Shown here piece after piece: positions 4,103-31,226 of a stretch of 32,000 nt of DNA. How positions within the stretch are numbered: the first letter of the stretch is position 1; each line of letters opens with the position of its first letter. The notes beneath the pieces were generated by a model, which ran no database searches, was not told the DNA's origin, and saw nothing but the letters and a program-made list of their open reading frames with translations. This DNA is from Candidatus Thorarchaeota archaeon (lineage in GTDB: Archaea; Asgardarchaeota; Thorarchaeia; Thorarchaeales; Thorarchaeaceae), in contig PRDJ01000063.1 of the NCBI GenBank assembly GCA_003345555.1, positions 1 to 32,000 of the forward strand, in the 5' to 3' direction. A program made the translations under genes and the position numbers.

Positions 4103-4157
4103 ATGCTATCAAGTAGCAATGAGAGCGACGATTCTCAGAGATTGTCTTCTCACAACG

Positions 4158-4165: not shown

Positions 4166-4190
4166 CACAATCCCGCGAGGACTGCCTTAC

Positions 4191-4304: not shown

Positions 4305-4385
4305 TGAACACACAATATCTCTCTTCTTTACCCTAAGATTATAACAGGGTTTCTTTCAGTCATTGAATGGCCACCAATCTACAGT

Positions 4386-4504
4386 GCGGGAGTTGCCAAG
4401 TCTGGTCAAAGGCGGCGGACTTAAGATCACGAAATCACGGGGTCATCCGATAGGACATCCGCCCTCGTAGGAGTTCGTGGGTTCGAACCCCACCTCCCGC
4501 ACCA
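4386..4504 (+). tRNA. tRNA-Leu(TAA) with 31-nt canonical 37/38 intron (4426-4456)
   Basis: GCGGGAG/CTCCCGC + ACCA; GCGGA-CT-TAA-G[intron]A-TCCGC; long variable arm; central helix CTTA/TAGG. Confidence 0.95.
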
Positions 4505-4576
4505 TTATCATTCTGGCTGATCCTGGCCGGATAGAGTTATCATTACGTTGTGTCGCGAGTACCTGTCGTGACATCG

Positions 4577-5896: not shown

Positions 5897-5936
5897 GGCC
5901 GCCCATTCGGCAGTTCACTCCGTCATTCTCCTATGT

Positions 5937-6515: not shown

Positions 6516-6627
6516 GTGAATAGCTTCCCTCCAGACGTATTTCAGGCAATCATGAAGTGACGACTCAAGAGCGAAGGTTTATGACTGCCGCAGAAGCTCA
6601 AGCGTCAAGAATGAAGGTGAGGCAGCA

Positions 6628-7980: not shown

Positions 7981-7981
7981 G

Positions 7982-9898
7982 CTGGAGTCTCAAGAGCATT
8001 ACAGGGCAATTGAATTGAAAATTGGCCTCGAGCTGCATCAGCAACTCGATAGTAGCCGGAAGCTGTTCTGCCACTGTGCTCCGGTCGTTCGAGAAGATGA
8101 GCCAGATGGACGTTTCATCAGACGTCTCAGACCGACAACGAGTGAAATGGGCCAGGTTGATCCTGCAGCATTGTTTGAATTCCAGAAGCAGAAGAGCTTC
8201 TATTACGAGTATTACGACGACACTACCTGCCTCGTTGAAGCCGACGAGGAGCCTCCTCATGACCTCAACCCTGAGGCTATTGACATATGTTTGACAATCG
8301 CTGCTATTCTCAAATCGACTCCAGTCCACGAAATCCACGCTATGAGAAAGATTGTGATAGATGGTAGCAATACGGCCGGCTTTCAGCGGACTGCCATAGT
8401 CGCGAATGGTGGCAGCATTCAGGTGGGAGGAAAGACAGTCGGCATCCAGATGATTGGTCTTGAAGAGGATGCCGCGAGGAAGATTGCTGATGACGATGAA
8501 AAGAACGCCAGAATATACCGTCTTGATCGACTTGGTATTCCCCTAGTTGAAATCGCGACGGCTCCTGACATTAGCTCACCGAAAGAAGCTCAGGAGGTTG
8601 CTCAAGCCATCGGCTTGCTCCTCCGGTCCACTGGTAGGGTGAAGCGCGGTCTGGGCACAATCAGGCAAGATGTCAACATATCAATTGAAGGCGGACGAGT
8701 TGTCGAAATCAAGGGGTTCCAGCAGCTTGACCTGATCAGCAGGCTTGTCGAGCTTGAGGTCCAGAGACAAGAAGGTCTCACGGGAATACGTGACGTGCTT
8801 CTGCAAAGAGGTGTCACCCCAAACATGTTTCAACAGACACCTCAGGACATCACCGTACTCCTTGCGAATTCCGGATCCAAGCTCATTAGAGGTGCGCTCG
8901 AATCCGGCGGTGTGGTTCTTGGAGTGAAGCTTCCCGGATTTGCTGGCTTGGTTGGACAGGAATTGCAGCCAGGGCGAAGACTTGGCACCGAGCTGTCGGA
9001 CTACGCGAAATTCTGGGGCGGAGTTGGAGGTATTTTCCACACAGATGAGCTGCCCAAGTACGGAATCACATCTTCCGATGTTGCGAAGATGCGGGAATCT
9101 CTGAATGCCGATGACATGGACGCAGTGGTCATAGTCGCTGCTTCGAAGAGGAACTGCGAAGATGCTCTCCACGCTGTTCTGGATAGGGCTCGTGCCGCAT
9201 TAGAGGGAGTGATTTCCGAGACACGAACACCCCTACCGGATGCGTCGTCAAAGTACGCTCGGCCCCGGCCTGGCGCACAAAGGATGTATCCCGAGACCGA
9301 TGTGCGGCCCGTTAAGGTCACTGTAGCACATCTCAAGACAATCGCCCGAAACATGCCCGAGACCTTGGAGAGCAAAGAAGAACGATTCGTGAAGGAGTAT
9401 TCTCTTAGTAGAGAGATGGCATCACAAGTGACCCGGTCTTTGAATCTCGACCTCTTCGAGAAGATTGTCAAGGTCTCTTCTGTTGCTCCTAAGCTGGTTG
9501 CTACAACGTTAGAGAACACAATGGTGCGTCTTCAGAGGGACGGAGTCGCTGTTGATAGCCTAGATGAAAGGCATCTGCTGTCGGTCTTCCAAGCGGTATC
9601 AGAGGGCAAGTTAACACCCGAAGGAATCCCTACACTGCTAACGGGACTCGCCAGTAATCCCAATCGTGAAGTAGAGGAGCTGCTTGCAGCCACTCGAACT
9701 GGTACGATGAGTCACGACGAGGCGCAATCGATCATCCACCGCATAGTGGACGACCGTCGCGATTTCATACGGGAACATGGTGAGGACTCAATTAGCGGTC
9801 TCATGGGTATTGCAATGAAGGAAATCCGAGGGCGTCTTGACGGAAAGGCGGTCAAAGAGCTACTTTCTGCCGAGGTCAAGCAAGTCCTCAAGGAGTAG
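7982..9898 (+). CDS. gatE: Glutamyl-tRNA(Gln) amidotransferase subunit E
   Basis: KIGLELHQQL, MRKIVIDGSNTAGFQRT, LEEDAARK, RLDRLGIPLVEIAT, RGLGTIRQDVNISI, RPGAQRMYPETD. Start uncertain (CTG7982 or TTG8015; the track's 7916 overlaps gatD). Confidence 0.97.
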   Translation: MESQEHYRAIELKIGLELHQQLDSSRKLFCHCAPVVREDEPDGRFIRRLRPTTSEMGQVDPAALFEFQKQKSFYYEYYDDTTCLVEADEEPPHDLNPEAIDICLTIAAILKSTPVHEIHAMRKIVIDGSNTAGFQRTAIVANGGSIQVGGKTVGIQMIGLEEDAARKIADDDEKNARIYRLDRLGIPLVEIATAPDISSPKEAQEVAQAIGLLLRSTGRVKRGLGTIRQDVNISIEGGRVVEIKGFQQLDLISRLVELEVQRQEGLTGIRDVLLQRGVTPNMFQQTPQDITVLLANSGSKLIRGALESGGVVLGVKLPGFAGLVGQELQPGRRLGTELSDYAKFWGGVGGIFHTDELPKYGITSSDVAKMRESLNADDMDAVVIVAASKRNCEDALHAVLDRARAALEGVISETRTPLPDASSKYARPRPGAQRMYPETDVRPVKVTVAHLKTIARNMPETLESKEERFVKEYSLSREMASQVTRSLNLDLFEKIVKVSSVAPKLVATTLENTMVRLQRDGVAVDSLDERHLLSVFQAVSEGKLTPEGIPTLLTGLASNPNREVEELLAATRTGTMSHDEAQSIIHRIVDDRRDFIREHGEDSISGLMGIAMKEIRGRLDGKAVKELLSAEVKQVLKE

Positions 9899-10063
9899 GC
9901 GTCGTTTACTGACAAGGATCGGCGACACGATTCCTCACCTACTCACTCGTGCACGTGCTTAGAAGAACCCAGAGTCATTCATATTATCGCAGACTCCTGT
10001 CCTTCCAGCTAGATTTAATAATGAATCACAGATGCTTGCCGAGCCAACCAAGCGAAAAGCCAT

Positions 10064-10203
10064 GCCGCAGTGGCCTAGTTGGCTAGGGCGCGAGACTCAT
10101 AATCTCCTCGAACTCGTCGGGGTACACATGGGGTCACAAGGTCTCGACCCAAACCAGATAAGCGATCTCGAAGTCGGGGGCTCGAATCCCCCCTGCGGCA
10201 CCA
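10064..10203 (+). tRNA. Elongator tRNA-Met(CAT) with 63-nt canonical 37/38 intron (10102-10164)
   Basis: GCCGCAG/CTGCGGC + ACCA (G1-C72, so not the initiator); CGAGA-CT-CAT-A[intron]A-TCTCG; T-loop reads CTCGAAT. Met versus Ile2 is assigned from acceptor similarity to archaeal elongator Met. Confidence 0.88.
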
Positions 10204-10320
10204 TCCCATTGCTGCTCCAAGGGGTCGGGAACTCGGGGACCCCGCAGCCCAACTAGACTCTCCGTTCTTATGGCAATGCCTATATTCCAATAAACTGACA
10301 CGGTTCTCGGGAAAACAGAA

Positions 10321-11529
10321 TTGTCATTGCCGTTTAAGACGCTTAATGATGTACAGTATGCAGGAAAGCGGGTGCTTGTGCGCGCCGACCTCAATTCCTC
10401 GTTGGACCCTAAGACGAAAGCAATCCTCGACGATTCGAGAATAATCGCCTCTCTTACCACGCTGAAAGAGCTGGCCAAGAGCAAGGTCGTCGTCATGGCA
10501 CATCAAGGTCGACCTGGTGATGAGGACTTCACTTCATTGGAGAAGCATACAGAGGTTCTGAAGAAGAATGGAATCAAAGCAAGCTTCGTCAATGACATCT
10601 TTGGTCAGAAGGCAAAGGATGCAATCAAGCAGGTGAAGGTCGGTGAAGTGCTTGTTCTGCAGAATACACGATACTTCGAAGGTGAGATGAAGACAGGTAC
10701 TCCTGAGGAAATGGCAAAGGAACCCATTGTGCAAGAGCTTTACCCTCTGTTCGACCTCTTTGTCAATGATGCCTTTGGTGCGGCACACAGGGCTCAACCA
10801 TCGATAGTTGGCTTCACTACAGTTCTCCCTTCAGTCGCAGGACGACTCGTGGAGAAGGAGATACGCACCCTGACCGCCGCCACTGCAACAGGCAAACATC
10901 CGTGGACTCTAGTGCTCGGCGGGGCGAAAGTAGAGGACAAGGTTCAGACACTCCAAAAGCTACTTGCTACTGGTCGAGTAGACAATGCACTTCTGGGTGG
11001 TCTCGTAGGGACGTTGTTCCTTGTTGCGCAGGGATCCATCCCAAAGGAATACGCTAGCTCAATCAAGGGCTATGAGTCGTCGCTGACTATCGCCAAACAG
11101 CTACTTGACAAGTATCCCAAGGTCATAGGTCTGCCAGTTGACGCCGCTGTTGAGAAGGACGGGAAGCGTGTTGAGTGCAAACTCGATCAGACGAAAGGAG
11201 CCCCTCTCCTAGACATTGGACCCTTGACAACGGACAAGTTTGCCAAGACCATTACCCAGTCAGCTGTGGTGTTTGCCAACGGGCCCATGGGTTACTTCGA
11301 GAAAGCACCTTTCGCAGTCGGAACTGAGAAGGTACTCGACGCAATTGTCAAATGCAAAGGTGTCACGATAGTTGGCGGAGGGCACGTGGGCGCCGTTGCT
11401 CAGATGAAGGGCGTAGCAGGCAAAGTCACCCACATAAGCACCGGCGGTGGTGCAACCATCAATTTTCTAACAGGCAAGAAACTTGAGCTCGTTGCTGCAC
11501 TTGAGGCCGCGGCAAAAAGGATGAAATAG
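10321..11529 (+). CDS. pgk: Phosphoglycerate kinase
   Basis: VLVRADLNS, HQGRPG, LQNTRY, NDAFGAAHR, LGGAKV, NGPMG, GGGH, HISTGGGA. Confidence 0.98.
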   Translation: MSLPFKTLNDVQYAGKRVLVRADLNSSLDPKTKAILDDSRIIASLTTLKELAKSKVVVMAHQGRPGDEDFTSLEKHTEVLKKNGIKASFVNDIFGQKAKDAIKQVKVGEVLVLQNTRYFEGEMKTGTPEEMAKEPIVQELYPLFDLFVNDAFGAAHRAQPSIVGFTTVLPSVAGRLVEKEIRTLTAATATGKHPWTLVLGGAKVEDKVQTLQKLLATGRVDNALLGGLVGTLFLVAQGSIPKEYASSIKGYESSLTIAKQLLDKYPKVIGLPVDAAVEKDGKRVECKLDQTKGAPLLDIGPLTTDKFAKTITQSAVVFANGPMGYFEKAPFAVGTEKVLDAIVKCKGVTIVGGGHVGAVAQMKGVAGKVTHISTGGGATINFLTGKKLELVAALEAAAKRMK

Positions 11530-11634: not shown

Positions 11635-11746
11635 TGGAGCCTCGGGCGAGTCTTGAACTCGCGACCTTCCGCTTTTCCGGCCTGCAGGCTGCGCTCCTGC
11701 TGCAAAGCTTACAAGGCGGATGCTATAACCCCTAAGCCACCGAGGC
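11635..11746 (-). tRNA. tRNA-Thr(TGT) with 36-nt canonical 37/38 intron (11674-11709)
   Basis: GCCTCGG/CCGAGGC + TCCA; TCCGC-CT-TGT-A[intron]A-GCGGA; T-arm GCGAG-TTCAAGA-CTCGC; strong intron helix, imperfect central helix. Confidence 0.93.
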
Positions 11747-15043: not shown

Positions 15044-16711
15044 CTAGTCAATATCTCCTGACTGCGCTACCTTTGCCGTAAGAGTCGCATTCTCTTCCAA
15101 GGCGTCTACGAGGGCGCTTCCCTGTCTTGTCTTAATCCGTATTGATGCCTCTCCATTTCGACCGGTTACCGTTGTGAGAAGGTACTGGTCGTTAGCAAAG
15201 ATGTCTAATCGCATCTTCACGTACTTCTTGCCAGCATACACCGTGACTTTCTTGTGCGAGTAGCTTACCGAAATTGGGACGCTTTCTCCCGGTGTCCCCC
15301 GTTCGAAGGTCTCTCGGCGTTCCCCCATAACAGGTCGGGTCTCACCGTGAACGGGAACCACGACTTTCTCTCCACCGAAAGTGAATATCTCGTATTCAAG
15401 CACTCCGCGCTCAAAGTCACGTACCTCAATGACAGGTCTCGCTAAGTCTCTTTGTGAGCTGCTCATTCCAGTTGGGAGCTTGACCTTTAAGGAGAGGGCA
15501 GCAACTTTCGCAACACGCCCTGCCTCTATATGTAAGACAGTATCCACAGTGCTTGGCAGCTGGCCCAATTCAACTCGGCCACCGAGTATCAACCGCTGTA
15601 TGGCATCAATGGCAGAGCCGGCATGCACTACTCCTACCATGCCGACACCTGCAGATCTCAGGTCGGAATACACCTGAAAGTCAGAGTTCTTTCGTAATTC
15701 GTCGTATACAACATAGTCTGGCCGTACCAGCAGTAGGATGTCTGCGGTCTTCTCCATGCTTCGATCAAGCGGAGCATACTGAACGATATCATCAGTTACT
15801 TGAAGGTCTCGAGGTTGCTCCAATGTCTTGACAACATTTCCCTTCTTACTATAGAACTCTGCAAGTGCAGCTGCAAACGTACTCTTTCCGGATCCGGGCG
15901 AGCCCGAAATGAGAATGCCTTCGGCACGGCTTTCTAGCCTGTTCATGAGTTTCGGGCTAAGGCCATAGTAATCGATGTCGAGCTTCGTGATGGGACGAAT
16001 CGCTGAGATTTCCATCTTGTCACTAAAAGGTGGACGCGCGATGGCGATACGGTAGTTTCTGAGTTGAACGACTGTCGCACCGAATTCCTCGATTTCTATG
16101 AATGAGGCTCTGTCCTGCCGTGCTCTCTCGAGTATTGTATTGGCTAGCTGATCCAGTTCCTCAAAAGCGAGAACATGGTCTGACAGGTCCACCAATTCCC
16201 AATCTCCGGGTTCTCCTCTCTTTGCCCGGGGAGGATTGTTCTCCACGAGATGGACACTCATGGTACGTTCATCGAAGAACTCCTCTAGGGTGACAATAGA
16301 ATCGGGGCGTTTCTTTGCAATTACAGTCACCTCGAGTCCCATGATACGACCCGCCGCCGCTTGGACACTGTCAGATGTCACTAGCGTCGCGCCAAGCTTT
16401 GATGCAGTATCACGAACCAAAGCATCCAATTCGCCCCTGTCTGCATCATGGACTTGGGCAATAGATGGTCTCTCGCCGGTGAATTCCAGCACGATGATAC
16501 CGTTATCGGCGAGAGATCTGAGTCGTTCAAGTTCATTGAGGCCTAGCTTTCCTACGTCCCTCTTCTGATTCGCCATGTGCTCGATTTCTGCCAGTACAAC
16601 GTTCGGGACGACTATTCGAAATCCTCTGTAGTCCCCGGATTCCACTTGGTGCGATACCCACCCGTCTATTACTACGCTAGTGTCAAGCACAATGACATTG
16701 TTCGTCATCAC
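15044..16711 (-). CDS. PINc/VapC-fused P-loop ATPase (PINA family)
   Basis: PIN domain (VLDTSVVIDG, GELDALVR, LVTSD), ATPase (GSPGSGKST, LEQPRDL, YDELR, GMVGVVHA), C-terminal beta domain. Confidence 0.92.
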   Translation of the reverse strand: MMTNNVIVLDTSVVIDGWVSHQVESGDYRGFRIVVPNVVLAEIEHMANQKRDVGKLGLNELERLRSLADNGIIVLEFTGERPSIAQVHDADRGELDALVRDTASKLGATLVTSDSVQAAAGRIMGLEVTVIAKKRPDSIVTLEEFFDERTMSVHLVENNPPRAKRGEPGDWELVDLSDHVLAFEELDQLANTILERARQDRASFIEIEEFGATVVQLRNYRIAIARPPFSDKMEISAIRPITKLDIDYYGLSPKLMNRLESRAEGILISGSPGSGKSTFAAALAEFYSKKGNVVKTLEQPRDLQVTDDIVQYAPLDRSMEKTADILLLVRPDYVVYDELRKNSDFQVYSDLRSAGVGMVGVVHAGSAIDAIQRLILGGRVELGQLPSTVDTVLHIEAGRVAKVAALSLKVKLPTGMSSSQRDLARPVIEVRDFERGVLEYEIFTFGGEKVVVPVHGETRPVMGERRETFERGTPGESVPISVSYSHKKVTVYAGKKYVKMRLDIFANDQYLLTTVTGRNGEASIRIKTRQGSALVDALEENATLTAKVAQSGDID

Positions 16712-17343
16712 TGTTCACCGGCCCGATTTCGTAAAGTCGCACGTGATACCTTATAGAAGTTCACTTCCCCGTTCTGGTCCACGAGGGCAAATACAAGCTT
16801 CTTACGTGCAGCAGAGGCTGCTTCAGTGACCATGTCCAAGTCTTGAAGCGATATCGGTTCTCCTTCTTTGAGGACATACACAAGCTGGCTGGCGGTTGCC
16901 GCACTGGGCCTGTCTCCTCTTGCATAAACCCTGAATCCGATTCCTCCACCGAAACCCTGACGCACTGCGTATCCCCTGCTTCTGAGGTCTCTGAATACCA
17001 GATAGCGGGTCCAGAGATCAGGATCTCCTTTCATAAGTTCATCCACTATCTGCCTTGCTTCAATCTGCTCTCCGGTAAGTGACCTTGTGAGGATCCTTTT
17101 CCTTTCAAGAAGATGAAGCATTTCGACAGGGTCGAGCTGCAGTCTGCCGTCATCTAGACGGGTTCCGTAGAAACCATCCTGTGATATCCTATCAGCCTCG
17201 GCACCAGAAACGTAGCCGTACCTATCGTAGAATATGGCTTCCGCTGGTTCCTCCTGAAGCTCTGTCAGCTCTTCTGCAATTTTCTCGTCATCAGGATTTC
17301 CTGTTTCCTCTGACTCTGGGTTCTCGCCATCTTTATCGGGCAA
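16708..17343 (-). CDS. endA: tRNA splicing endonuclease family subunit, probably non-catalytic (structural)
   Basis: LQLDPVEMLHLLE, YLVFRDLRSRGY, FRVYARG, RKKLVFALVDQNGEVNFY match the EndA fold; Tyr and His of the catalytic triad not found. TTG17343 preferred over ATG17406. Confidence 0.9.
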   Translation of the reverse strand: MPDKDGENPESEETGNPDDEKIAEELTELQEEPAEAIFYDRYGYVSGAEADRISQDGFYGTRLDDGRLQLDPVEMLHLLERKRILTRSLTGEQIEARQIVDELMKGDPDLWTRYLVFRDLRSRGYAVRQGFGGGIGFRVYARGDRPSAATASQLVYVLKEGEPISLQDLDMVTEAASAARKKLVFALVDQNGEVNFYKVSRATLRNRAGEQ

Positions 17344-17443
17344 CCAGTCTCGCCTGATAGAGCAGGACCTCAGCCGATTCGAGAAAAACCCTTCGTCGAG
17401 GTACATTGCGAGAATCTAGGCAAGTATTTGGACCAGTGAGCCT

Positions 17444-19013: not shown

Positions 19014-19037
19014 CCGTGTGCATTCTGTGCTTTGTCG

Positions 19038-20174
19038 ATGACACAATCTTCTGAGGAGCGATGGTTGAGCACGACTCCGGACCGGATTTCATATCTCAGG
19101 GCTGATTCCACAGGATGGTTGCTCGAGCAGGACAACGCATCTGTTCGTTACTTCGCTCTAAGAGACCTTCTTGAATGTCCCCCCAAAGACCCAGAAGTCC
19201 TTGATGCCAAACTCAGAATTGGAGCATCCGAGCAAGTCACGAAGATATTCCTGAAGCAGAAACCGGACGGTCACTGGGAAAGGCCCGAAGAGCCGTATCA
19301 GCCCAAGTACAAGGCATCCTACTGGCAAGTTATGCTTCTGGGCATGCTGGGTCTTGACAAATCGGATGAGCGAGTCAGGAGTGCTATCAATCACATCTTT
19401 TCGTTTCAGCATGAAGAAGGTGGTTTTGCTCAGTACGGAGCGGAAGGAGCTCGTGCGGAATACGACTACGTCTCTCATAGGGCATCACGATATGGAAAGA
19501 CTATTCTTTCATTCAGGCCTTGGGCCGAGAAGGAACTCCATGACTCCCAGATGTCTTGCCTCACGGGGAATGTCTCTCTTGCTTTGATTCGGCTAGGGTA
19601 TTCCAGAGATGCCCGACTGCGCAAAGCATTGAATTGGCTGGTGAAGGTACAGAACCTCGACGGCGGCTGGTTGTGTCCGTACTGGGGGGCCCACATACAT
19701 GACAAGCATGGCTGTTTCATGGGCACCATCACTCCTCTTCATGCATTCGCTGAGTATCCCAAGAAGTACAGGACACCGGGTATGCAGAAGGCCATCGAAA
19801 CCGGTGTCGAATTCCTTCTAATGCACAGGCTGTTCAAGGCGGACAATCATGGCTTCAAGGTGATCAAACCGTCTTGGCTCACCCTCAGTTTTCCGCAGTT
19901 CTTCTATGACATATTGCGTGCCCTTCTGGTGGTGACTAGCCTGGGATACGCTGCTGACGAGCGAATAGATGACGCACTGAAAGAGATCCTTCACAGGCAG
20001 AATGAGAAAGGCAGATGGGCTGTCGAAGCTACCTTGGCCGGCAGACTGCAAACTACCTTGGAGAAGCAAGGCCGACCGAGCAAGTGGATTACCCTAGATG
20101 CTCTGAGAGTGATTAAGAACGTTGTCAAAGAGAGAGGTCAGTTGAACACCGGCGGAGGCGGTTCCGAACCGTGA
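19038..20174 (+). CDS. QW-repeat (terpene cyclase/prenyltransferase alpha-alpha barrel-like) protein of unknown function
   Basis: Repeats LKQKPDGHW, FQHEEGGF, KVQNLDGGW, HRQNEKGRW; C-terminal GRPSKWITLDAL. Confidence 0.75.
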   Translation: MTQSSEERWLSTTPDRISYLRADSTGWLLEQDNASVRYFALRDLLECPPKDPEVLDAKLRIGASEQVTKIFLKQKPDGHWERPEEPYQPKYKASYWQVMLLGMLGLDKSDERVRSAINHIFSFQHEEGGFAQYGAEGARAEYDYVSHRASRYGKTILSFRPWAEKELHDSQMSCLTGNVSLALIRLGYSRDARLRKALNWLVKVQNLDGGWLCPYWGAHIHDKHGCFMGTITPLHAFAEYPKKYRTPGMQKAIETGVEFLLMHRLFKADNHGFKVIKPSWLTLSFPQFFYDILRALLVVTSLGYAADERIDDALKEILHRQNEKGRWAVEATLAGRLQTTLEKQGRPSKWITLDALRVIKNVVKERGQLNTGGGGSEP

Positions 20175-20218: not shown

Positions 20219-20296
20219 TGGCGGGCACGGTCGGATTTGAACCGACGACATCCAACTCCGAAGGCTGGTGCCTTGTCCAAGCTAGACTACGTGCCC
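20219..20296 (-). tRNA. tRNA-Arg(TCG), intronless
   Basis: GGGCACG/CGTGCCC + GCCA; CCAGC-CT-TCG-GA-GTTGG; GTCGG-TTCAAAT-CCGAC. Confidence 0.97.
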
Positions 20297-21460: not shown

Positions 21461-21571
21461 GATATTGCCATTCCAAGGTCTTTGGCTGCCTTTCCCTAAT
21501 CTTCATATTACCATCTCCGTACTGATATGTTCACTCGAACATATCAGTAGGCTCACATGGAGACTCCTTGA

Positions 21572-23119
21572 ATGAATCGTGGAGCAGCTGTACTTGTGCT
21601 CTCGTTGGTACTAGTGGCCGCAGGCCTCGCAGTGGGTCTGTTTGTCTTTCAACCCATAAGAGAATCTCCAGCAATCTCGGTCCAAGGGGGATACCTAGTT
21701 GGTACGTCAAGTGATACTGCATTGGTTCGGGCTATGAGCCTAAGTCTAGACATCACGCTGCTTTGGGAATCTCAGTCAGGAGTCGGCTTGTTCAGAATCA
21801 ATGTGACCAACATAGATACCGAGAGAATGATTGCAGAATCGGATGCACAGGTCACCGTTGTTGCAGTCGGGTATAGCTCCAAGACTTTCGAAGTACGTAC
21901 GACCGCACTGAAGGCCGAGCTCAGTCTACGGCATACGTCCTCAGATTCCATTCGATTCTATGTCTTCGGCGATTCACAAGGCTATCAAGGCGGAATGCAG
22001 CAAATCGTATTATCTGCGAACGAGAACAGACCAGACTTTCTGTTCCACTGCGGAGACCTTACGCCCTTCGGTCAGGAGAACCAGTACGTTAGTTTCACGC
22101 AGGCTCTTCATAATCTGACAATACCTTTGTTCGCTACCACTGGAAATCACGACGTACGCAAGGGGGGCGACTTGCGATACCTTCAACACTTTGGTCCTTC
22201 CAGTTATTCGTTTGATTTTGGCGCTGCACACTTTACAGTTCTCGATACTTCCAGTGGCAATGTTTCGGAGGCGGCCTATAGTTGGCTAGCTAACGATATC
22301 ATCGGATCTTCTGCAGAATGGAAGATTGTATTCACTCACATTCCCCCGTTTGATCCACGCCCCGGAGGAAACCATACGTTAGGTAATACCACTACAGCCG
22401 AACGGTTGATGAATCTGTTCAAGACTTCGGGTGTAAACATAGTGTTTGCCGGCCACATTCATGTATTCAATGAAACCATCTTCGGTGGTGTGCATTATGT
22501 AATCACAGGGGGCGCCGGCGCGACCGTATCTCCGAGTTCACAAGGAGGAACGTACCACTATGTCAACGTCACATTACAAGGGTCAAATCTCCTGATGAAT
22601 GTCATACCGTTGAGTCCTCCAATTCTGGCCGTTGGCACAATTACAATTCGAGGGGTTTTAGATAGTATGACGGTCTCGCTTGAGGATTTGGGAACACTCA
22701 CAACTATCGTGGGTTCATCGTCATTCCAGAATCAGTATGGCAACTGGGGCGGACTAGGCGAATACAGAGGAGTCCGAGTATCAGACTTGGTCGACATGGT
22801 TGGTGGAATGACAACGAATGAATTACTGTCCGTGTCAGCGTTCGATGGTTACCAACGACTGTACTCCTACTGGAATGTCTATCCCAATGATTCTTGGCAT
22901 TCACTGCAGGGCGACATGATACTCGCATATGAGTTCAACGAGACATTGGGCCCAACTTGGCAAGACGGTCCGAGGATCGCAATGCTCGCACCCGACGGCG
23001 CTTACAGCAACGATGACTGTTTGGCTACTTCGGCTCCGGGGCTAGGCTTCTACTATTACCCGTCTGCGGGCGCGCTCTGGGTTAGGTGCGTAGTACTTAT
23101 TGAGGTGAATCACGAGTGA
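21572..23119 (+). CDS. Membrane-anchored calcineurin-like metallophosphoesterase fused to a C-terminal molybdopterin-oxidoreductase-like domain
   Basis: Signal anchor; motifs GDSQ, GDL, GNHD, THIPP, GHIH; C-terminal TVSLEDL...YRGVRVSDLV...AFDGY...MILAYEFN...GPRI...LWVRCVVLIEV; 9 N-x-S/T sequons. Confidence 0.85.
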   Translation: MNRGAAVLVLSLVLVAAGLAVGLFVFQPIRESPAISVQGGYLVGTSSDTALVRAMSLSLDITLLWESQSGVGLFRINVTNIDTERMIAESDAQVTVVAVGYSSKTFEVRTTALKAELSLRHTSSDSIRFYVFGDSQGYQGGMQQIVLSANENRPDFLFHCGDLTPFGQENQYVSFTQALHNLTIPLFATTGNHDVRKGGDLRYLQHFGPSSYSFDFGAAHFTVLDTSSGNVSEAAYSWLANDIIGSSAEWKIVFTHIPPFDPRPGGNHTLGNTTTAERLMNLFKTSGVNIVFAGHIHVFNETIFGGVHYVITGGAGATVSPSSQGGTYHYVNVTLQGSNLLMNVIPLSPPILAVGTITIRGVLDSMTVSLEDLGTLTTIVGSSSFQNQYGNWGGLGEYRGVRVSDLVDMVGGMTTNELLSVSAFDGYQRLYSYWNVYPNDSWHSLQGDMILAYEFNETLGPTWQDGPRIAMLAPDGAYSNDDCLATSAPGLGFYYYPSAGALWVRCVVLIEVNHE

Positions 23120-24180
23120 GTCTTGACCGTTCAACGGCACAAATGACCCGTGAAATCGTAACGGTCGCTGTTCTGGCCTCCCTCGGTGGCGCTCTAAGCA
23201 CCTTTGTAGGCTATCTAGGTAATCTCATAAATGCCGGCCTGGGTGTGCCATTTGGAGCAGGCCAGTTCATGGCTGGTCTCCATGTCTTCTGGATTGTGCT
23301 GATCAGACTATTGGTGCCGAAGAGGGGGGTCGGAACCGCAGGAGGTCTTCTGAAGGGCTTCGTTGAGTTCCTGACAGGCAGCACACACGGAATTGTCGTT
23401 GTGTTGGTATCCGTCATTCAGGGCGCTATTGTGGATCTGGGTGCTACCTTGGGGGGAAGACCATCCCCCGCAGGACCCGGGGCGAAGCTCGTGTGGTGGC
23501 TTTCAGCCGGTGTCTCTTCTGCTTCCAACGTGTTAGCGCTCCAATTCCTCTACTTCTCAGGCGCACCTGCAATCTACCTCTTCCTAATCGCAGTCCTCGC
23601 TTTCTGCTCTGGAATCATCTTTGGCGGCTATTTCGCATGGGAAACAATGCAGTTCCTATATGACGCAAGAGTCATAGTTCCCGTCTCTGAAGCGGCGGTG
23701 CCAGTTCTCTCATCTAAGCGGAGGATAAGGATTCGAAATCTCCCGGCCATAGTACTGATTCTTTTCCTAATTGTCGGCTCATCCTTCTATCTTGCGTTTG
23801 TGATGAAGGCTTTGTCAGACCCGTACTCTTGCGAAGTTACGGGGCTCGTCACAAATCCGTATACTTTCACATACTCAGCATTTGCTGGTGAGCAGGTTAC
23901 AATTGTGGCCGAACTCAAGGGCGCGTATATCTCTCTCCCTCCCGCGAATTACACTGGGGTTCTTCTGAGTGTAATTCTGGCGAATGCAAGTCCGCAGTCA
24001 GGAGCTTCCATGTTGAGCGTGAGCGCACGGGATGGCTACGTTGTAGATTTCGGCCTGGATGGCGTTCTCGCTGATGGCCATTTACTGCTGACAAGAGCTG
24101 ACGATGGTCTCTGGCTTATTGCCGGAAACTATGCCGGTTCGATGTGGGTAAAACAGGTCACTACTCTCAGAGTGTACTAG
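23116..24180 (+). CDS. ECF transporter S-component (YkoE-like) fused to a molybdopterin-oxidoreductase-like domain
   Basis: Multi-TM N-terminus (EIVTVAVLASLGG, KRGVGTAGGLLKGFVEFLTGSTHG, QGAIVDL); extra TM; C-terminal EVTGLVTNPYTFT...YTGVLLSVIL...ARDGY...WVKQVTTLRV. Confidence 0.8.
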   Translation: MSLDRSTAQMTREIVTVAVLASLGGALSTFVGYLGNLINAGLGVPFGAGQFMAGLHVFWIVLIRLLVPKRGVGTAGGLLKGFVEFLTGSTHGIVVVLVSVIQGAIVDLGATLGGRPSPAGPGAKLVWWLSAGVSSASNVLALQFLYFSGAPAIYLFLIAVLAFCSGIIFGGYFAWETMQFLYDARVIVPVSEAAVPVLSSKRRIRIRNLPAIVLILFLIVGSSFYLAFVMKALSDPYSCEVTGLVTNPYTFTYSAFAGEQVTIVAELKGAYISLPPANYTGVLLSVILANASPQSGASMLSVSARDGYVVDFGLDGVLADGHLLLTRADDGLWLIAGNYAGSMWVKQVTTLRVY

Positions 24181-24192
24181 GCGAGAACCACT

Positions 24193-25647
24193 ATGCTTGA
24201 AGCGCGTCACGTCACTTTCTCCTATGATGGAATACAACCTGTACTTCGTTCCATAGACCTGACGCTTCAACGAGGGGAGACTCTACTAATCACGGGCCCA
24301 ACCGGTTCGGGAAAGTCGACTCTGGCCAAGTTCCTCTGTGGATTCATACCACGAATCGTCCGTGGCGAATGTTCCGGTGTACTGTCCATCGACGGTGACG
24401 ACGCCGATTCTCTTACACTAACCGAAATTGCGCGGAAAGTATCTCTCGTACAGCAGGATCCCGAGAGCCAGATTTGTACCCTTACGGTAAGTGACGAGGT
24501 AGCATTCGGACCAGAGAACTACCTGATTAAACCCGAAGTTATGACCCGCCTAGTTGACTCGTCGTTGGCATCTATCGGATCATCTCATCTTGCTGGTCGT
24601 TTGACTTATGCATTGTCCGGTGGAGAGAAACAGCGGGTTGTGATAGCTTCAATGCTTGCGTGCCAACCTGACTATCTGATTCTAGATGAACCCTCGTCGA
24701 GTCTAGATCAGAAAGGCATTCTCCAGCTCGGACAGATATTGAGTGAGCTGAAGAAAAAGAACTTGGGTGTCATATGCATTGAACATCATCTTGAGCCATT
24801 CCTGCCGTCGGCAGACCGTGTTCTATCATTATCTGAGGGCAGACTGTTTCCTTGGGCCCAAGACGTTGGCCGGAGGGGCGGCCCATTCCAAAATCATTCT
24901 GTTCTGCCAATCGAGACCGATGCCCTCGCTTCAATGAAGAATGTCAGTTTTGCCTATGCAGACAGGCCTGTGATTCGGAGAGTCACAATGGCAATTCATC
25001 GTGGAGAGGTCATTGCACTGATGGGAGACAACGGCTCCGGGAAGACGACACTTCTTTGTTTGTTGGACGGACTGCTCAATCCCTTGGAGGGCGAGATCTG
25101 CTTGGGCGCTAATTCGGTCAAGAGGCTGTCAAAGAAAGACATAGCAAAGAAAGTCGCAATGGTATTTCAGAATCCGAACAATCAGATATTCGAGCGGACT
25201 GTCTCAAGGGAGCAACTTCTTACTTTGGACGTTCTGGGACTCAAAGAGAGTCGTTTGACCGAAAACAGCGGCGCGCGTCTCGATGAGGCTGGTCTTGCAG
25301 AATTCAAGGACAGAAACCCGTTCGCGTTAAGTCACGGTCAGAAACGTCGGCTCAATGTGTGCTCAGCTGTTGTTCATGATCCCGACTTGTACCTGTTTGA
25401 TGAGCCCTTCATTGGGCAGGATGAGCGTGGCCAAAGATTCATCACAAATACGATAGCCGAAAGGGCCCGAACAGGCGGGGCCTGCGTCGTGGCAACTCAC
25501 GATCTCCCCTTTGCGGCAGAGTATTGCAGCCGACTAGTTTTCCTAGAAAATGGCTCGTTGCTTTTCGATGGCCGCCCCGAATCAGTCTTTCACAGGCTCG
25601 AACAAACCGGGCGGCCGGAATACAGTCTTGGCAAGGTGGCGTCCTAA
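24193..25647 (+). CDS. ECF transporter duplicated ATPase (EcfA-A' fusion, YkoD-like)
   Basis: Two ABC cassettes: GPTGSGKST/QDPESQ/LSGGEKQR/ILDEP/EHH and GDNGSGKTT/FQNP/LSHGQKRR/LFDEP/ATHD. Confidence 0.95.
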   Translation: MLEARHVTFSYDGIQPVLRSIDLTLQRGETLLITGPTGSGKSTLAKFLCGFIPRIVRGECSGVLSIDGDDADSLTLTEIARKVSLVQQDPESQICTLTVSDEVAFGPENYLIKPEVMTRLVDSSLASIGSSHLAGRLTYALSGGEKQRVVIASMLACQPDYLILDEPSSSLDQKGILQLGQILSELKKKNLGVICIEHHLEPFLPSADRVLSLSEGRLFPWAQDVGRRGGPFQNHSVLPIETDALASMKNVSFAYADRPVIRRVTMAIHRGEVIALMGDNGSGKTTLLCLLDGLLNPLEGEICLGANSVKRLSKKDIAKKVAMVFQNPNNQIFERTVSREQLLTLDVLGLKESRLTENSGARLDEAGLAEFKDRNPFALSHGQKRRLNVCSAVVHDPDLYLFDEPFIGQDERGQRFITNTIAERARTGGACVVATHDLPFAAEYCSRLVFLENGSLLFDGRPESVFHRLEQTGRPEYSLGKVAS

Positions 25648-26466
25648 TTGACTTCACGGACTGGATTCATAGATAGGAATACGATACTCCACCGTCTGAA
25701 TCCCGCGATGAAGCTTTGCGCACTGGTATCCATAGCGGTTGCTACCATAGTCTATCCGAGTTGGCGACTAAGTGCAATTGTACTTCTGTCTATCTTGGTA
25801 TGTTTCAGACTCTCACACGTTCCCCTCCGGTTGACGAAAGGCCGGATGAAGTTCATTCTAACATTCGCGGCGCTGATGTTGTTGCTACAGATTATCGTAA
25901 TAGAGAATGGCTCGATTCTCTTCTATCTGCTCCCTCAAATCGGCAGCTTGGGCCCCTTCTTTCCGGTGACCGATTTCGGCATCGAACGAGGCCTAGATAT
26001 AGTGGTCAGGTTTCTCTTGATTATATTCTCCAGCATACTCTTTGTCTCGATCACTGACCCCACGCTGCTTGCCTATTCTCTGGTCCGGATTGGAATCCCC
26101 TACAGGTATGCTTTCTCACTTGTATTAGCGCTCAGATTCCTGCCGCTATTTGATTCCGAGAACAATATCGTTCGCATGGCTCAGCAGTCCAGAGGTATTT
26201 CCCTTGAGGTCGGCAGCATTCACAAGATACTCAGAAGCGTAAGGTACACATTCTTTCCTCTGCTCGTATCCGCCCTGTCGAGGGTTGACAGCCTTTCCCT
26301 TTCAATGACTGGTAGAGGATTTGGCTATAGTGATAAGAGAACGTACCTGCGCATCACACATTGGTCTCCAAGCGACTGGGCGATTCTCGCCATCTCGGTC
26401 ATCTTCACAATCTTCTGCTTCATACTGGCACTCGGTTTGCTTCCTCAGGTCTCTCGGTTCCTTTGA
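25648..26466 (+). CDS. ecfT: ECF transporter T-component
   Basis: LHRLNPAMKL, LALRFLP, conserved Arg motifs AQQSRG and MTGRGF, RTYL. Confidence 0.95.
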   Translation: MTSRTGFIDRNTILHRLNPAMKLCALVSIAVATIVYPSWRLSAIVLLSILVCFRLSHVPLRLTKGRMKFILTFAALMLLLQIIVIENGSILFYLLPQIGSLGPFFPVTDFGIERGLDIVVRFLLIIFSSILFVSITDPTLLAYSLVRIGIPYRYAFSLVLALRFLPLFDSENNIVRMAQQSRGISLEVGSIHKILRSVRYTFFPLLVSALSRVDSLSLSMTGRGFGYSDKRTYLRITHWSPSDWAILAISVIFTIFCFILALGLLPQVSRFL

Positions 26467-28637
26467 GATCGAGTGTGCGGAATGCGTGTCTCCACAGCAG
26501 TGCTGATTGAGTGAAGAGCATCCTCTGGAGTAACTCTGTTTCCATTCCGAAACACATTGGGATAGTACATGGAGTAGCACTGCAGGCATTTTCCAAGTGT
26601 CATTACTTGAACTTCAAGCGGAGTCGGTTTCTCTCCTCTTGTCTTGAGCACGGCCACCACCTCTTTCGATGCCTTGTCGATAGACCTTCTCACCGAGGCC
26701 CAGGATCTGGAGCGCCCTTGCAGCTCTCTCCTCCGACATACAAGAACAACATCATACTTGATGCTGTTGGTTAGGCGTAAGTGAGTTGAGGACTCCATCT
26801 CGCTTCTAACCGGGTAGGCCGCACTTATGGCAAAACCAGAATACAGCACTGCTTGAAGCACAGAGACCCACTCATTTAGGCTTCTATGATGAAATGTAAA
26901 CACAAGGATACCGTCCGGTTTCAGTACTCGGTTCGCTTCGGCAAAGATACCCGTGAGTCCCCGAAGGAACTCTTTCTCTCCTTTTTGCTGGACACTGTTA
27001 GAGATTACCTCCTCCTCCCATGGAACTGTTTCACTGTCGAACCACGAGTACTTGGTTCTTAGGCCCAATCGTAACCAGACATAGAAGAAATTCGATAGCT
27101 CCGAATACATCACGTTCCCTGCATATGGGGGGTCGGTGACGACAGCATCGATGACTGCATCCGGAATATCAATATGGTCCGAGGAACCGCAGATCAACAT
27201 TGCCTGTTTTGTTTTGCGAAAATCCTTGTAATGCAACGCTAATTGGCCACTAATCGGCGTGGTGAAGTGTACTGCTCTTATCTCAGTACCTTCAACTACT
27301 CTCTCAAACGGTGCTATACAGTAGTCTTTTGCCTCCATCACGAGTCTGACAAAGGCCGTGAAAGGTCCTCGCCCTTTTGCAGTATCATAGCAATTACCCT
27401 CCACTGGCGTCATTGAAGGCGAGTATGAGTGAGTTCTGAAGATGTCAGTTATGAAGCCCCTTGTTCCGTTGTACTTACATAGCATGTTATTATACTTCAG
27501 GCAATTCGAGAAAGCAAGGACAAGAAACTCCTTCAGATTCCAGTCTTCGATACTCAATATCCATCTGTATATCTTCCCGAGGTTCAGTAGCTGTCTAGCA
27601 TTGAATAAGTCCCTGAATTTCACGTATCCGTGGTTCAGGACGCGTCTAGTCTCCACCCCTTGCGGAATCGCTACGTCTGGGATGGGTAGATACTGTACTT
27701 CACTTTCGTACTCGCTTTCTGCTTTCTTCAGAAGCTCGTAGTCAGCACTATCGGGCGCCTTGTAGCCTCTGCCGTGCATCAATCTGGGGTTATTGTTTTG
27801 ATCACATGCATGACAGTAGAATTCGATGGCATACATTCGCTCTCTAGGTCGGCCCTGCTGTCTTATCGCGCGCGTAATCTGTGCAGGTTTGCATGTTGGT
27901 CTAAGGCAGAAGAACTGTTGTCCTGAAGTAAACGATGTTGCTTTTGCGCAGAATTCAGCCCCACATTTCGGGCAAGTGCTCGGTTGTGCTGCATTGAGGG
28001 TTTCGAAAATGCCCCAGCAGTTTGGGCAGACCACTACATCCCCTCTTCCTGTAGGGGCTTTGGCCAAGAAGAAGTCCCGCATCAGCGGAACCGTGGTGCC
28101 GCATTCAGGACACTTCAGCTCCTTACGATGAAAGTAGTAAATCGCTTCTGCACTGCCACTACACTCAGGACACACGGTTTTGTAGTACCTGCGGAGTTCG
28201 ACTCCAAGCTCGCTCTCAAGCTTCGAGAGACAGTCTCTGAGAGAAGCCGAGTCAATATGCTCAATCTCTTTTTTCACCACAAACCAAGAGACCGGATTCA
28301 GGTCTCCTCCAATGACCTTGCACCCAAGCCTGAGTGCCTCAACGATTGTGGTACCCCCGCCCATCATCGGGTCGAGGACGACCTTTCCGTTCAGCTGAGT
28401 GTCACGGGAATAGAAGGCCCATAGGTTGTTGGGGTCCTGATCCCATTGTGCCAATCCTCGGTCAGCCAGAGAATATAGAAGTATGGCACGAAAGACAGAA
28501 CCAAGTCTTCGTGCCCACCATTTGTGCATCAGATACACAGGACGATAATGCCGTCTTCCAAAGCCGGTCGACTCCTTCTCCGCAATCTTGTTGATTTCAG
28601 CAATTGGAAAGAAGTCTTCAATCGGTCTGGACGACAC
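26445..28637 (-). CDS. DUF1156-domain amino-DNA methyltransferase with multiple Zn-ribbon insertions
   Basis: HKWWARR (DUF1156), SAM motif DPMMGGGT, catalytic TDPPY, several CxxC pairs, LVFTFHH. Confidence 0.9.
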   Translation of the reverse strand: MSSRPIEDFFPIAEINKIAEKESTGFGRRHYRPVYLMHKWWARRLGSVFRAILLYSLADRGLAQWDQDPNNLWAFYSRDTQLNGKVVLDPMMGGGTTIVEALRLGCKVIGGDLNPVSWFVVKKEIEHIDSASLRDCLSKLESELGVELRRYYKTVCPECSGSAEAIYYFHRKELKCPECGTTVPLMRDFFLAKAPTGRGDVVVCPNCWGIFETLNAAQPSTCPKCGAEFCAKATSFTSGQQFFCLRPTCKPAQITRAIRQQGRPRERMYAIEFYCHACDQNNNPRLMHGRGYKAPDSADYELLKKAESEYESEVQYLPIPDVAIPQGVETRRVLNHGYVKFRDLFNARQLLNLGKIYRWILSIEDWNLKEFLVLAFSNCLKYNNMLCKYNGTRGFITDIFRTHSYSPSMTPVEGNCYDTAKGRGPFTAFVRLVMEAKDYCIAPFERVVEGTEIRAVHFTTPISGQLALHYKDFRKTKQAMLICGSSDHIDIPDAVIDAVVTDPPYAGNVMYSELSNFFYVWLRLGLRTKYSWFDSETVPWEEEVISNSVQQKGEKEFLRGLTGIFAEANRVLKPDGILVFTFHHRSLNEWVSVLQAVLYSGFAISAAYPVRSEMESSTHLRLTNSIKYDVVLVCRRRELQGRSRSWASVRRSIDKASKEVVAVLKTRGEKPTPLEVQVMTLGKCLQCYSMYYPNVFRNGNRVTPEDALHSISTAVETRIPHTRSQRNRET

Positions 28638-31148: not shown

Positions 31149-31226
31149 TGGCGCCCCCGCCGGGATTTGAACCCGGGTTAGACGAGTGACAGTCGCCTAT
31201 GCTAGACCGGACTACACTACAGGGGC
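31149..31226 (-). tRNA. tRNA-Asp(GTC), intronless
   Basis: GCCCCTG/CGGGGGC + GCCA; GGCGA-CT-GTC-AC-TCGTC; CCGGG-TTCAAAT-CCCGG. Confidence 0.97.

Follow-up and report, generated by a model that had tools for sequence, protein, structure and literature searches.

What does an energy-coupling factor (ECF) importer carry when its capture subunit, and the exported enzyme encoded beside it, both end in a domain with the fold of a molybdenum-cofactor enzyme? The question is raised by a 32,000-nucleotide stretch of DNA from a Candidatus Thorarchaeota archaeon (assembly GCA_003345555.1, contig PRDJ01000063.1, positions 1 to 32,000 of the forward strand), which we call the window, and within it by the four coupled genes at positions 21,572 to 26,466. 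The pterin cofactors of molybdenum and tungsten enzymes (Moco and Wco) are regarded as made by each cell itself, owing to their lability. Our results very probably place the operon in Mo/W-cofactor acquisition, and we propose, with a probability of about 0.6, that its cargo is the ready-made W or Mo pterin cofactor (Wco, Moco or a close molybdopterin derivative), taken up as salvage. On somewhat better than an even balance, the operon and a kinase-like gene before it form in Thorarchaeia-type Asgard archaea a swappable five-gene cassette that has replaced the whole biosynthesis pathway together with tungstate uptake, a prokaryotic importer of ready-made cofactor with relatives in methanogens, Bacillota and riboswitch-bearing bacteria. 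The genes of the operon and their two C-terminal domains are as follows.

21572-23119, + strand: exported metallophosphoesterase (P0001), 515 aa, PF00149, N-terminal transmembrane (TM) anchor
22619-23116, + strand: SUOX-like domain of the phosphoesterase, residues 350-515, from AlphaFold and Foldseek
23116-24180, + strand: YkoE-family ECF S component (P0002), 354 aa, PF09819
23812-24177, + strand: SUOX-like domain of the S component, residues 233-354, from AlphaFold and Foldseek
24193-25647, + strand: fused double ECF ATPase EcfA-EcfA' (P0003), 484 aa, TIGR04520 and TIGR04521
25648-26466, + strand: EcfT/CbiQ T component (P0004), 272 aa, PF02361 (E 1.5e-29)

P0001 and P0002 overlap by 4 nt (GTGA), 12 nt separate P0002 from P0003, and P0003 and P0004 abut with no gap. 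A sequence-only reading of the window had described these four genes as an anchored metallophosphoesterase, an S component, a double ATPase and EcfT; its coordinates all hold, and Pfam and NCBIfam bear out the identities. P0003 has two ABC_tran stretches (TIGR04520, 322 bits; TIGR04521, 320 bits). An S component, two ABC ATPase domains and an EcfT/CbiQ protein in one coupled operon make the layout of a group I (dedicated) ECF importer, and the predicted transporter is a member of that class and of the YkoE fold family.

The importer and cofactor synthesis exclude each other in Asgard genomes

We used one fixed sample of 251 Asgard genomes, 96 of which belong to the four families f1, f12, f22 and f25. 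The S component fused to a SUOX-like domain was found in 65 of the 96 and MoaC in 23, and no genome has both:

f1: 60 genomes, fused S component in 36, MoaC in 20, both in 0
f12: 19 genomes, fused S component in 17, MoaC in 2, both in 0
f22: 16 genomes, fused S component in 11, MoaC in 1, both in 0
f25: 1 genome, fused S component in 1, MoaC in 0, both in 0

MoeA follows MoaC, and it marks two further f1 genomes, G134 and G149, as biosynthesis-type. The single overlap is G087, which has the cassette and MoeA without MoaC; because the cassette and MoeA stand at the starts of two short contigs (C89 and C88, respectively) and MoaC is missing, this genome may be a mixed bin of two related strains. 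The MoeA match of G087 has the same E-value and open reading frame (ORF) length as that of G134. AOR-family genes are present in every genome of these families with either state, mostly at least seven per genome. Both states occur within five genera (g9, g12, g14, g27 and g44), so the pattern does not reflect one ancient split. By the Fisher test the values are 2.5e-12 within f1 and 9e-16 when the families are pooled, on related genomes that are not independent of each other, and the five mixed genera are therefore the safer count.

The two states also differ at the locus itself. The syntenic slot between an IF-2B-family gene and methylase/short-chain dehydrogenase genes is empty in biosynthesis-type genomes, so the five genes behave as a single unit, an insertion/deletion cassette that is polymorphic for presence and absence at the same conserved site. 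Within f1, the matches listed for the SUOX-like C-terminal domain of the phosphoesterase (31 weaker ones exist besides) come from operon-type genomes and G108, with no biosynthesis-type genome among them; G108 is probably operon-type with its S gene unassembled.

Two controls were included. A search for ThiC was negative in all 95 other genomes of the four families, whether they carry the cassette or not, and MptA/FolE2 was found in 26/32 operon-type and 14/19 biosynthesis-type genomes (p 0.73). Thus Moco synthesis co-varies with the system, and thiamine and ordinary pterin synthesis do not. MptA was not found in the window's genome and is present in all three of its same-genus relatives, so its absence there is probably an assembly gap. 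The sequence-only reading had suggested looking for a correlation with loss of Moco genes or of thi genes: the first exists, as the exclusion of MoaC, and the second does not, since ThiC was found in no genome of the four families.

Over the whole phylum sample, AOR-family genes are present in 247/251 genomes, MoaC in 110/251 and MoeA in 116/251, which suggests that many of these archaea rely on cofactor from outside.

Cofactor demand without synthesis in the window's genome

The genome that contains the window (G000; 2.28 Mb, 93.5% complete) encodes ten AOR-family genes and one true SUOX gene as users of the cofactor, and MoaC, the C-terminal domain of MoaA, MoaE and MoeA were not found in it. 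The true SUOX gene, one more cofactor consumer in a genome unable to make the cofactor, codes for a cytoplasmic protein of 188 aa with the motif FHCVTGW (L001:1438-2004, contig C82) and adjoins 2-oxoacid:ferredoxin oxidoreductase-like genes. The sister genome G075 carries one compact cluster of a TupA-like binding protein, a permease, an ATPase, MoaA, MoaE, MoaC, MoaB, MoeA and MoeB. When this cluster was compared with G000 by tblastn, no TupA-like binding protein, permease, MoaE, MoaC, MoaB, MoeA or MoeB was found, and MoaA and the transporter ATPase gave only generic radical-SAM and ABC matches. As the genome has neither MoeA nor any tungstate transporter that can be recognised, the imported compound would need to arrive with its metal in place. 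A weak SBP_bac_11 match on contig C31 was considered as ModA/WtpA and rejected, as it looks like a PhnS2-type protein; a tungstate-binding protein of another kind is possible in this genome.

ThiC and ThiE were not found in G000 either, where a Thi4 search returned Rossmann-motif matches only, and the families f1, f12, f22 and f25 appear to be thiamine auxotrophs. P0002 is the only PF09819 S component in G000.

P0001 and P0002 both end in a cysteine-less SUOX/PruR-like domain

According to the sequence-only reading, P0001 and P0002 both end in a domain of the sulfite oxidase/MsrP type. In the profile scan that it proposed, PF00149 and PF09819 are significant and PF00174 is not, its scores in the two C-terminal domains (17.7 and 11.3 bits) lying below the gathering score of 24, which some homologues pass. 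The two tails are weakly alike (BLASTP E 0.004; hhalign 86% over 44 columns). AlphaFold models built with homologue alignments reach a pLDDT of 92.5 for the S-component domain and 89.9 for the phosphoesterase domain, and the best Foldseek matches of both in the PDB are SUOX-family Moco domains and PruR (E 1e-6 to 3e-6, TM-score 0.6-0.83). The SUOX-family matches are SorA, SorT, SoxC, YedY and the chicken, plant and Thermus sulfite oxidases (TM-score by query 0.63-0.83), and the PruR structures are 7kom, 7kos, 7rkb and 7kp2 (TM-score by target 0.55-0.72, E 3e-6 to 1e-4). For the S-component domain SorA comes first (1e-6, TM-score by query 0.83), with YedY, SoxC and PruR also matched, and for the phosphoesterase domain SorT (3e-6) and PruR 7kom (3e-6, TM-score 0.72 by target). 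By sequence alone, a profile of 77 family members finds SoxC (5e-14), SorA (1e-13) and PruR 7kom (8e-6); a profile of the phosphoesterase C-terminal domain finds no PDB relative by sequence, and its relatives emerge from the fold search alone. The domain assignment thus stands on AlphaFold, Foldseek and the 77-sequence profile.

The molybdenum-ligating cysteine is missing. That of the genome's true SUOX protein lands in a two-residue gap of the S-component domain (probability 64%), and in the phosphoesterase domain it falls on the invariant Asn387 of an invariant SSFQN (hhalign, low probability); no conserved cysteine was found at this position in 20 and 26 homologues of the two domains. These domains therefore have the fold of SUOX and are not enzymes of the SUOX family. 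Other positions are kept. DGY and W344 are invariant among homologues of the S-component domain, whereas in the phosphoesterase domain D425-G426 is invariant and followed by a tyrosine that is sometimes phenylalanine, with G466, R468 and W503 invariant or nearly so; in the 77 family members D-G-Y and the C-terminal tryptophan are nearly invariant. Tyr104 and Trp160 of PruR sandwich the pterin ring, to which Asn102 adds a hydrogen bond (PMC11194511), and at the level of sequence profiles the D-G-Y/Trp spacing of the family and its offsets to 7kos fit this N102-x-Y104/W160 clamp. The Pro-Trp motif of PruR's cysteine position was not seen in the family domains, and no DcpA-type GGDEF/EAL partner was found in the window or in 20 related loci.

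Relatives of the domain number 433 at E <= 0.001 in a library of 1.84 billion proteins, in four architectures: fusions to the S component in one or two copies, single domains on an anchor, exported proteins that contain as many as 13 copies, and a fusion to a BtuF/FhuD-type binding protein. A twin of the S-component domain in the ESM Atlas (TM-score 0.92) lies in a mostly Bacillota cluster of PF09819+PF00174 proteins. The broad domain profile also matches true SUOX enzymes, including a class of 344-356 aa beside the Moco clusters of family f9, and is thus unusable as a clean phylum-wide marker. A complex prediction with the two SUOX-like domains together scored 0.02, which is evidence for neither outcome. 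G000 encodes a further SUOX-like protein, of 493 aa (PF00174, 31.8 bits; contig C52, L047:6540-8021, - strand), away from the operon and adjoining the genes of a TPR protein and of an 896-aa protein without a Pfam match.

The S component is a YkoE homologue with an altered pocket

The S+AA'+T layout had been likened to that of YkoEDC, and the likeness extends to the S component itself. P0002 matches PF09819 at E 5e-15, and a profile of its TM part matches YkoE (5edl_A) over the full length at E 1.4e-14 (query 10-201, chain 3-189); phmmer of the same core against PDB sequences gave no match, so that YkoE is reached by the profile alone. A six-TM core (residues 10-200) is followed in P0002 by a seventh TM helix at about residues 209-232 (TM7) and then by the extracytoplasmic SUOX/PruR-like domain. 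S components end in the cytoplasm (PMC5037267), and six lysines or arginines precede TM7 while none follows it; by the positive-inside rule, both SUOX-like domains are therefore predicted to face outward.

In YkoE, thiamine is contacted by Tyr46, Trp49 (stacking and essential), Glu77, Gln95 and Asp131 (PMC5037267). The HMMER alignment places Ala53, His56 (invariant), Glu84, Gln102 and Gln143 of P0002 at these positions, so only the Glu and the Gln, the hydrogen-bonders of the pyrimidine, are retained and the residues expected for thiamine specificity are not. Judged by these residues, the pocket would be compatible with another pyrimidine-containing ring, such as a pterin.

Relatives of the operon lie behind Moco/Wco riboswitches

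The gene set is kept in hundreds of metagenomic homologues and in about 65 of the 251 Asgard genomes, far beyond chance, and the conservation on which the sequence-only reading depended is thus established. Eleven f1 loci share the order kinase-like gene, phosphoesterase::SUOX-like, S::SUOX-like, EcfAA', EcfT (one is cut at a contig end before EcfT), within family-wide synteny. Across 20 related loci the order S-ATPase-EcfT holds in 17, the others being two f22 loci with ATPase and EcfT apart and one contig-cut f1 locus; the P0003 gene is kept downstream of the S component and the P0004 gene as the end of the cassette. The partners vary. In f12 the gene before the S component codes for a protein of 370-430 aa with two tandem SUOX-like domains and no phosphoesterase; f22 and f25 have stand-alone SUOX-like proteins, with or without the full phosphoesterase fusion; and f27, which lacks MoaC and MoeA, has a split version in which a 175-aa SUOX-like protein adjoins an unfused S component. 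The invariant core is therefore the S component, the ECF module and at least one exported SUOX-like domain.

In more distant relatives, the Moco/Wco riboswitch RF01055 (68 bits, gathering score 36) lies directly upstream of an operon (L059) for a SUOX-like protein, an S component with two SUOX-like domains, a purple-acid-phosphatase-like phosphoesterase, EcfAA' and EcfT. The same riboswitch (63.8 bits) precedes an operon on two metagenome contigs (L061 and L062; L061:849-8351) that codes for a 1020-aa SUOX-like::Peripla_BP_2 (BtuF/FhuD-type) protein, a FecCD permease, an ABC ATPase, a radical-SAM protein and a 383-aa protein, and that looks like a second, non-ECF importer type with the same capture domain. 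As outlined in PMC2408646, the regulon of this riboswitch comprises biosynthesis genes, modABC-type transporters and Moco enzymes. Its presence before both operons therefore assigns this family of systems to the same Mo/W-cofactor regulon as moa genes and molybdate transporters.

Methanocellaceae carry two genes for NPP-type phosphodiesterases (PF01663) downstream of those for the fused S component, EcfAA'T and a SUOX-like protein. Three types of phosphodiesterase thus accompany the system: GpdQ/CpdA-like in the window, purple-acid-phosphatase-like at L059 and the two NPP-type enzymes of Methanocellaceae. This suggests an organic substrate bearing a phosphodiester or pyrophosphate rather than an oxyanion, and the dinucleotide forms of the cofactor, molybdopterin guanine dinucleotide (MGD) and molybdopterin cytosine dinucleotide (MCD), suggest themselves as the obvious candidates.

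An accessory phosphoesterase, a kinase-like gene and a putative operator

Behind its TM anchor (residues 7-25), P0001 consists of a variable N-terminal domain (about 30-125), a calcineurin-like phosphoesterase (127-330) and the SUOX/PruR-like domain, with nine N-glycosylation sequons and a single, N-terminal TM segment. PF00149 is matched at E 1e-17 (65.7 bits), and the nearest solved relatives are GpdQ (1e-7), purple acid phosphatases (2e-6) and Rv0805 (1e-4), with a resemblance to CpdA also. The metal-ligand motifs GD134, GD162, GNHD191-194, H256 and GHIH294-297 are invariant among homologues; motif I is GDSQG, with the Asp retained and the His absent, as in purple acid phosphatases. By these motifs P0001 is a predicted enzyme of the calcineurin-like metallophosphoesterases. 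A P0001-type gene adjoins the S component in all f1 operon genomes, but other lineages have other phosphodiesterase types and the f12 locus has no copy, so the phosphoesterase looks like an accessory trimming enzyme and not an obligatory step. Of the dephosphorylation outside the cell that the sequence-only reading envisaged, the fusion of phosphoesterase and SUOX-like domain has held up; the step itself is putative, and the enzyme is phosphodiesterase-like and is replaced or missing in other lineages.

Two further elements lie upstream of P0001:

20663-21460, + strand: kinase-like protein, cytoplasmic, 265 aa, RIO/Bud32/APH-like fold, first gene of the cassette in family f1
21520-21549, no strand: operator-like palindrome, 30 bp, with 13-bp arms and a 4-nt centre

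The kinase-like protein has weak matches to Pfam APH/RIO1 and NCBIfam Bud32 and, in a topology check of its sequence, no TM segment; K77, KGDPRLRNF (D155 and N160) and DFEE (D172) are invariant in 12 homologues. Within f1 its gene occurs in 30/32 operon-type and 0/19 biosynthesis-type genomes, being absent from the empty syntenic site of the latter. It was not found in the distant loci inspected or in f22. The gene tracks the cassette in f1 and not in those, so the putative coupling of dephosphorylation outside to re-phosphorylation inside would be specific to family f1.

The palindrome lies between the kinase-like and phosphoesterase genes, 22 nt upstream of the start codon of the latter, and has the core TGATATG-N10-CATATCA, with a promoter-like CCCTAA..TTCATATT upstream of it. 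Its arms are kept, with a varying spacer, in 7/11 f1 loci from several genera. It occurs once in the 2.28-Mb genome, where 0.008 chance matches are expected, and a regulon search found no further copies there. Kept arms, a variable spacer and a single genomic copy suggest a putative protein operator rather than an RNA hairpin.

Surroundings of the cassette

Genes around the cassette in the window include TFIIE-alpha, GatD/GatE, a tRNA-intron endonuclease (16708-17406) and DUF2110; they point to an Asgard archaeon, as does the name 'Candidatus Thorarchaeota archaeon' attached to close homologues. A gene for a 730-aa protein with DUF1156 and an N6/N4 DNA methylase (26445-28637, - strand) converges on EcfT and overlaps its last 22 nt; homologues flank the slot in operon-type genomes and in 3/5 biosynthesis-type genomes inspected (G146, G116 and G227), so this is a backbone gene outside the cassette. 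Between the IF-2B-family and kinase-like genes lies a gene for a 380-aa alpha-alpha toroid protein resembling prenyltransferases and terpene cyclases (19032-20174, + strand), found at this place only in the window's genome and G046 and hence variable content of the same slot. Six tRNA genes (4191-4301, 4386-4501, 10064-10200, 11638-11746, 20222-20296 and 31152-31226) are the sole Rfam matches of the window, which has no riboswitch at Rfam gathering scores; four of these matches span 109-137 nt and must therefore contain introns. A sequencing-run search found the DNA in wetland metagenomes from several studies, and no RNA run holding it was among the matches listed.

Discussion

In this work we have analysed an ECF operon whose presence excludes Moco synthesis in four Asgard families, whose relatives stand behind Moco/Wco riboswitches and whose exported parts carry the SUOX/PruR fold. 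These three grounds support the core of the sequence-only reading, in which an ECF transporter forms part of an extracytoplasmic capture-process-import line for a pterin-like cofactor, and narrow it to the Mo/W pterin, the only one of its three candidates (the others being thiamine pyrophosphate and FMN) to gain specific support. We propose that the outer cysteine-less domains, one tethered to the S component through TM7 and at least one on anchored partners, would capture the pterin moiety. The partner phosphoesterase, where present, would trim phosphodiester or pyrophosphate forms such as MGD and MCD, or remove phosphate. The YkoE-type S component would then take the ligand into its membrane pocket, with EcfAA'T driving ATP-powered import. 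In f1, re-phosphorylation or some other finishing of the imported molecule may fall to the cytoplasmic kinase-like enzyme, and a repressor at the palindrome probably controls the operon.

Several points weigh against ready-made cofactor as the cargo. Without MoeA the imported form would need its metal on board, and free Moco and Wco are very labile. The phyletic pattern is a correlation among related genomes. In most genomes of family f5 (24/26), in around half of those of f9 and in the majority of those of f24, AOR genes are present and both biosynthesis and the system are missing, which implies that there is another route. MoaC accompanies the system in three Methanocellaceae genomes, and replacement of biosynthesis is therefore not universal; salvage and synthesis could coexist there, as they can for other vitamins, and these genomes also fit metal uptake. 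The f12 loci lack the phosphoesterase, and a search of 22 f22 genomes, five of them with the full phosphoesterase, did not find the kinase-like gene. In the f9 genome G186 (L057; contig C8:4000-19000), an unfused YkoE-like S component, EcfAA' and EcfT (ORFs at 7748-11036) stand beside MoaC-MoaA-MoaE-MoeA-MoaB-MoeA (2316-7580) on the same strand, in the slot that holds TupABC in G049 (L055) and G075 (L045), and Chloroflexota clusters in the ESM Atlas have the domain fused to PBP_like_2/SBP_bac_11 (TupA/ModA-like) binding proteins; both fit metal uptake too. The S-component domain has a shortened hairpin, and the pocket of PruR has been described as too short for Moco (PMC11194511).

Could the cargo then be the metal alone? 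Import of tungstate or molybdate, with the SUOX-like domains capturing or presenting the oxyanion and the ECF module in place of TupABC/ModABC, is the alternative that survives best, and we consider it unlikely. The G186 locus and the Chloroflexota fusions speak for it, as do the Methanocellaceae that keep MoaC and the loss from the window's genome of the G075-type TupABC together with the Moa genes, and in its published outline the Moco riboswitch regulon also includes molybdate transporters (PMC2408646). But MoaC is missing from about 65 Asgard genomes that carry the system, and MoeA from all of these except one, and the window's genome also lacks MoaA, MoaE, MoaB and MoeB, so that an imported metal would find no pterin and no insertase. 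Three kinds of phosphodiesterase have no role in oxyanion uptake, the S component is of the organic-vitamin YkoE family and not of the CbiM/NikM metal type, and the fold of the domains is a pterin-binding one.

Another pterin or precursor, of the neopterin/monapterin type or related to folate or methanopterin, could be imported instead, possibly after phosphate removal; this is less probable still. Archaeal pterin intermediates bear cyclic or linear phosphates, and the phosphoesterase is similar to phosphodiesterases, including those that act on cyclic nucleotides. Among small non-catalytic proteins the nearest relative of the domain is PruR, which binds pterins of the monapterin/neopterin type and is considered too small for Moco (PMC11194511). 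Yet MptA/FolE2, the first enzyme of archaeal pterin synthesis, is equally present in both genome types, so there is no sign of an ordinary-pterin auxotrophy linked to the system, while the exclusion is specific to the Moco cluster and the riboswitch of the relatives is of the Moco/Wco class. We know of no route from such pterins to molybdopterin without MoaA, MoaC and MoaE.

Thiamine was a natural candidate, and the sequence-only reading had named thiamine pyrophosphate (TPP). An importer of thiamine or hydroxymethylpyrimidine (HMP) like YkoEDC would have the phosphoesterase make thiamine from TPP or thiamine monophosphate outside and the APH-like kinase act as thiamine kinase inside. The S component is a YkoE homologue, with many of its own homologues named thiamin/HMP permease by the Joint Genome Institute; the window's genome lacks ThiC and ThiE, the pyrimidine-binding Glu and Gln are retained, and the thiamine kinase ThiK is a member of the APH kinase family. 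We nevertheless regard thiamine as improbable and find no support for the TPP candidate: in the four families ThiC is missing whether or not the operon is present, which leaves nothing to co-vary, an invariant His stands in place of YkoE's stacking Trp (with Ala for Tyr46 and Gln for Asp131), the window has no TPP riboswitch whereas relatives carry Moco riboswitches, and a thiamine system has no place for a pterin-binding fold or for exclusion of the Moco cluster. Finally, that the SUOX-like domains are sensors in the style of PruR-DcpA, tuning the transporter of an unrelated substrate to extracellular pterins, is most improbable: PruR, the only characterised cysteine-less small SUOX-fold protein, is indeed a periplasmic signalling protein (PMC11194511), but the locus has no GGDEF/EAL or other signalling partner, the domain is fused covalently to the substrate-capture subunit and is also found in arrays of up to 13 in exported proteins and in fusions with the binding proteins of other importers, and exclusion of Moco biosynthesis would be left unexplained.

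Import of the ready-made cofactor thus remains the reading that we prefer. If it is true, Moco and Wco would be an exchanged public good in anoxic sediments, like cobalamin, and molybdo- and tungsto-enzymes in genomes without the Moco pathway would be explained, with the cassette as the first concrete, testable candidate for an outside supply of cofactor in these archaea. ECF transporters would gain a new class of substrate and, in an S component that bears an external capture domain of its own, a new architecture. The reading would also give a function to widespread cysteine-less 'molybdopterin oxidoreductase' annotations, change metabolic reconstructions of Asgard archaea and other anaerobes and offer growth-factor hints for cultivation.

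Comparison with known systems

We found no paper on a prokaryotic importer of Moco or molybdopterin in open-access papers and preprints, nor, in agreement with the sequence-only reading, any on such a fusion; the novelty that we propose lies in an ECF importer that combines an external capture domain with partner enzymes and a new substrate, and the window contributes the exclusion of biosynthesis across the phylum and the polymorphism of the cassette. The closest transporter is YkoEDC of B. subtilis (YkoE PDB 5EDL; PMC5037267), which shares the dedicated operon, the PF09819 S component, the fused double ATPase and the T component. The archaeal S component differs from YkoE in TM7, in its extracytoplasmic SUOX-like domain and in the pocket substitutions given above; the exported phosphoesterase with its SUOX-like domain and the kinase-like gene have no counterpart in ykoEDC, and the phyletic pattern of the archaeal system tracks Moco genes and not thiamine genes.

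For the domain itself there are two points of comparison. PruR, from Agrobacterium and other Proteobacteria (PDB 7KOS, 7KOM and 7RKB; PMC11194511), is a small, exported, cysteine-less SUOX fold without a catalytic partner domain, as the window's domains are predicted to be, and by their profile offsets the Asn/Asp-x-Tyr motif and the C-terminal Trp appear to stand at matching places. Unlike the domains of the window, which are fused to a transporter subunit and to an enzyme and are just 12-18% identical to it, PruR is a stand-alone signalling protein that controls the cyclic di-GMP enzyme DcpA. The SUOX enzymes (sulfite oxidase, SorA, SoxC and YedY/MsrP) have the fold of their Moco-binding domain in common with the window's domains, and the copy in the phosphoesterase retains the G-x-(P)-R strand-loop and the W-V-[KR] strand. 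In contrast to these enzymes, the window's domains lack the Mo-ligating cysteine, the dimerisation domain and the redox partner domain, and they are predicted to face outward on membrane anchors, in a genome without cofactor synthesis.

In its regulation the window also stands apart from the Moco/Wco riboswitch regulon, for it has a conserved DNA palindrome and no riboswitch, and the members of that regulon, as far as its published outline goes, do not include ECF importers (PMC2408646).

As a whole, the system may be compared with modules that couple extracellular processing to vitamin import, since a phosphorylated or nucleotide-linked cofactor would here too be trimmed outside and its core imported. 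A precedent for acquiring ready-made Moco from other organisms is the nematode C. elegans, which reportedly takes it up from food bacteria, although the components in the window are unrelated.

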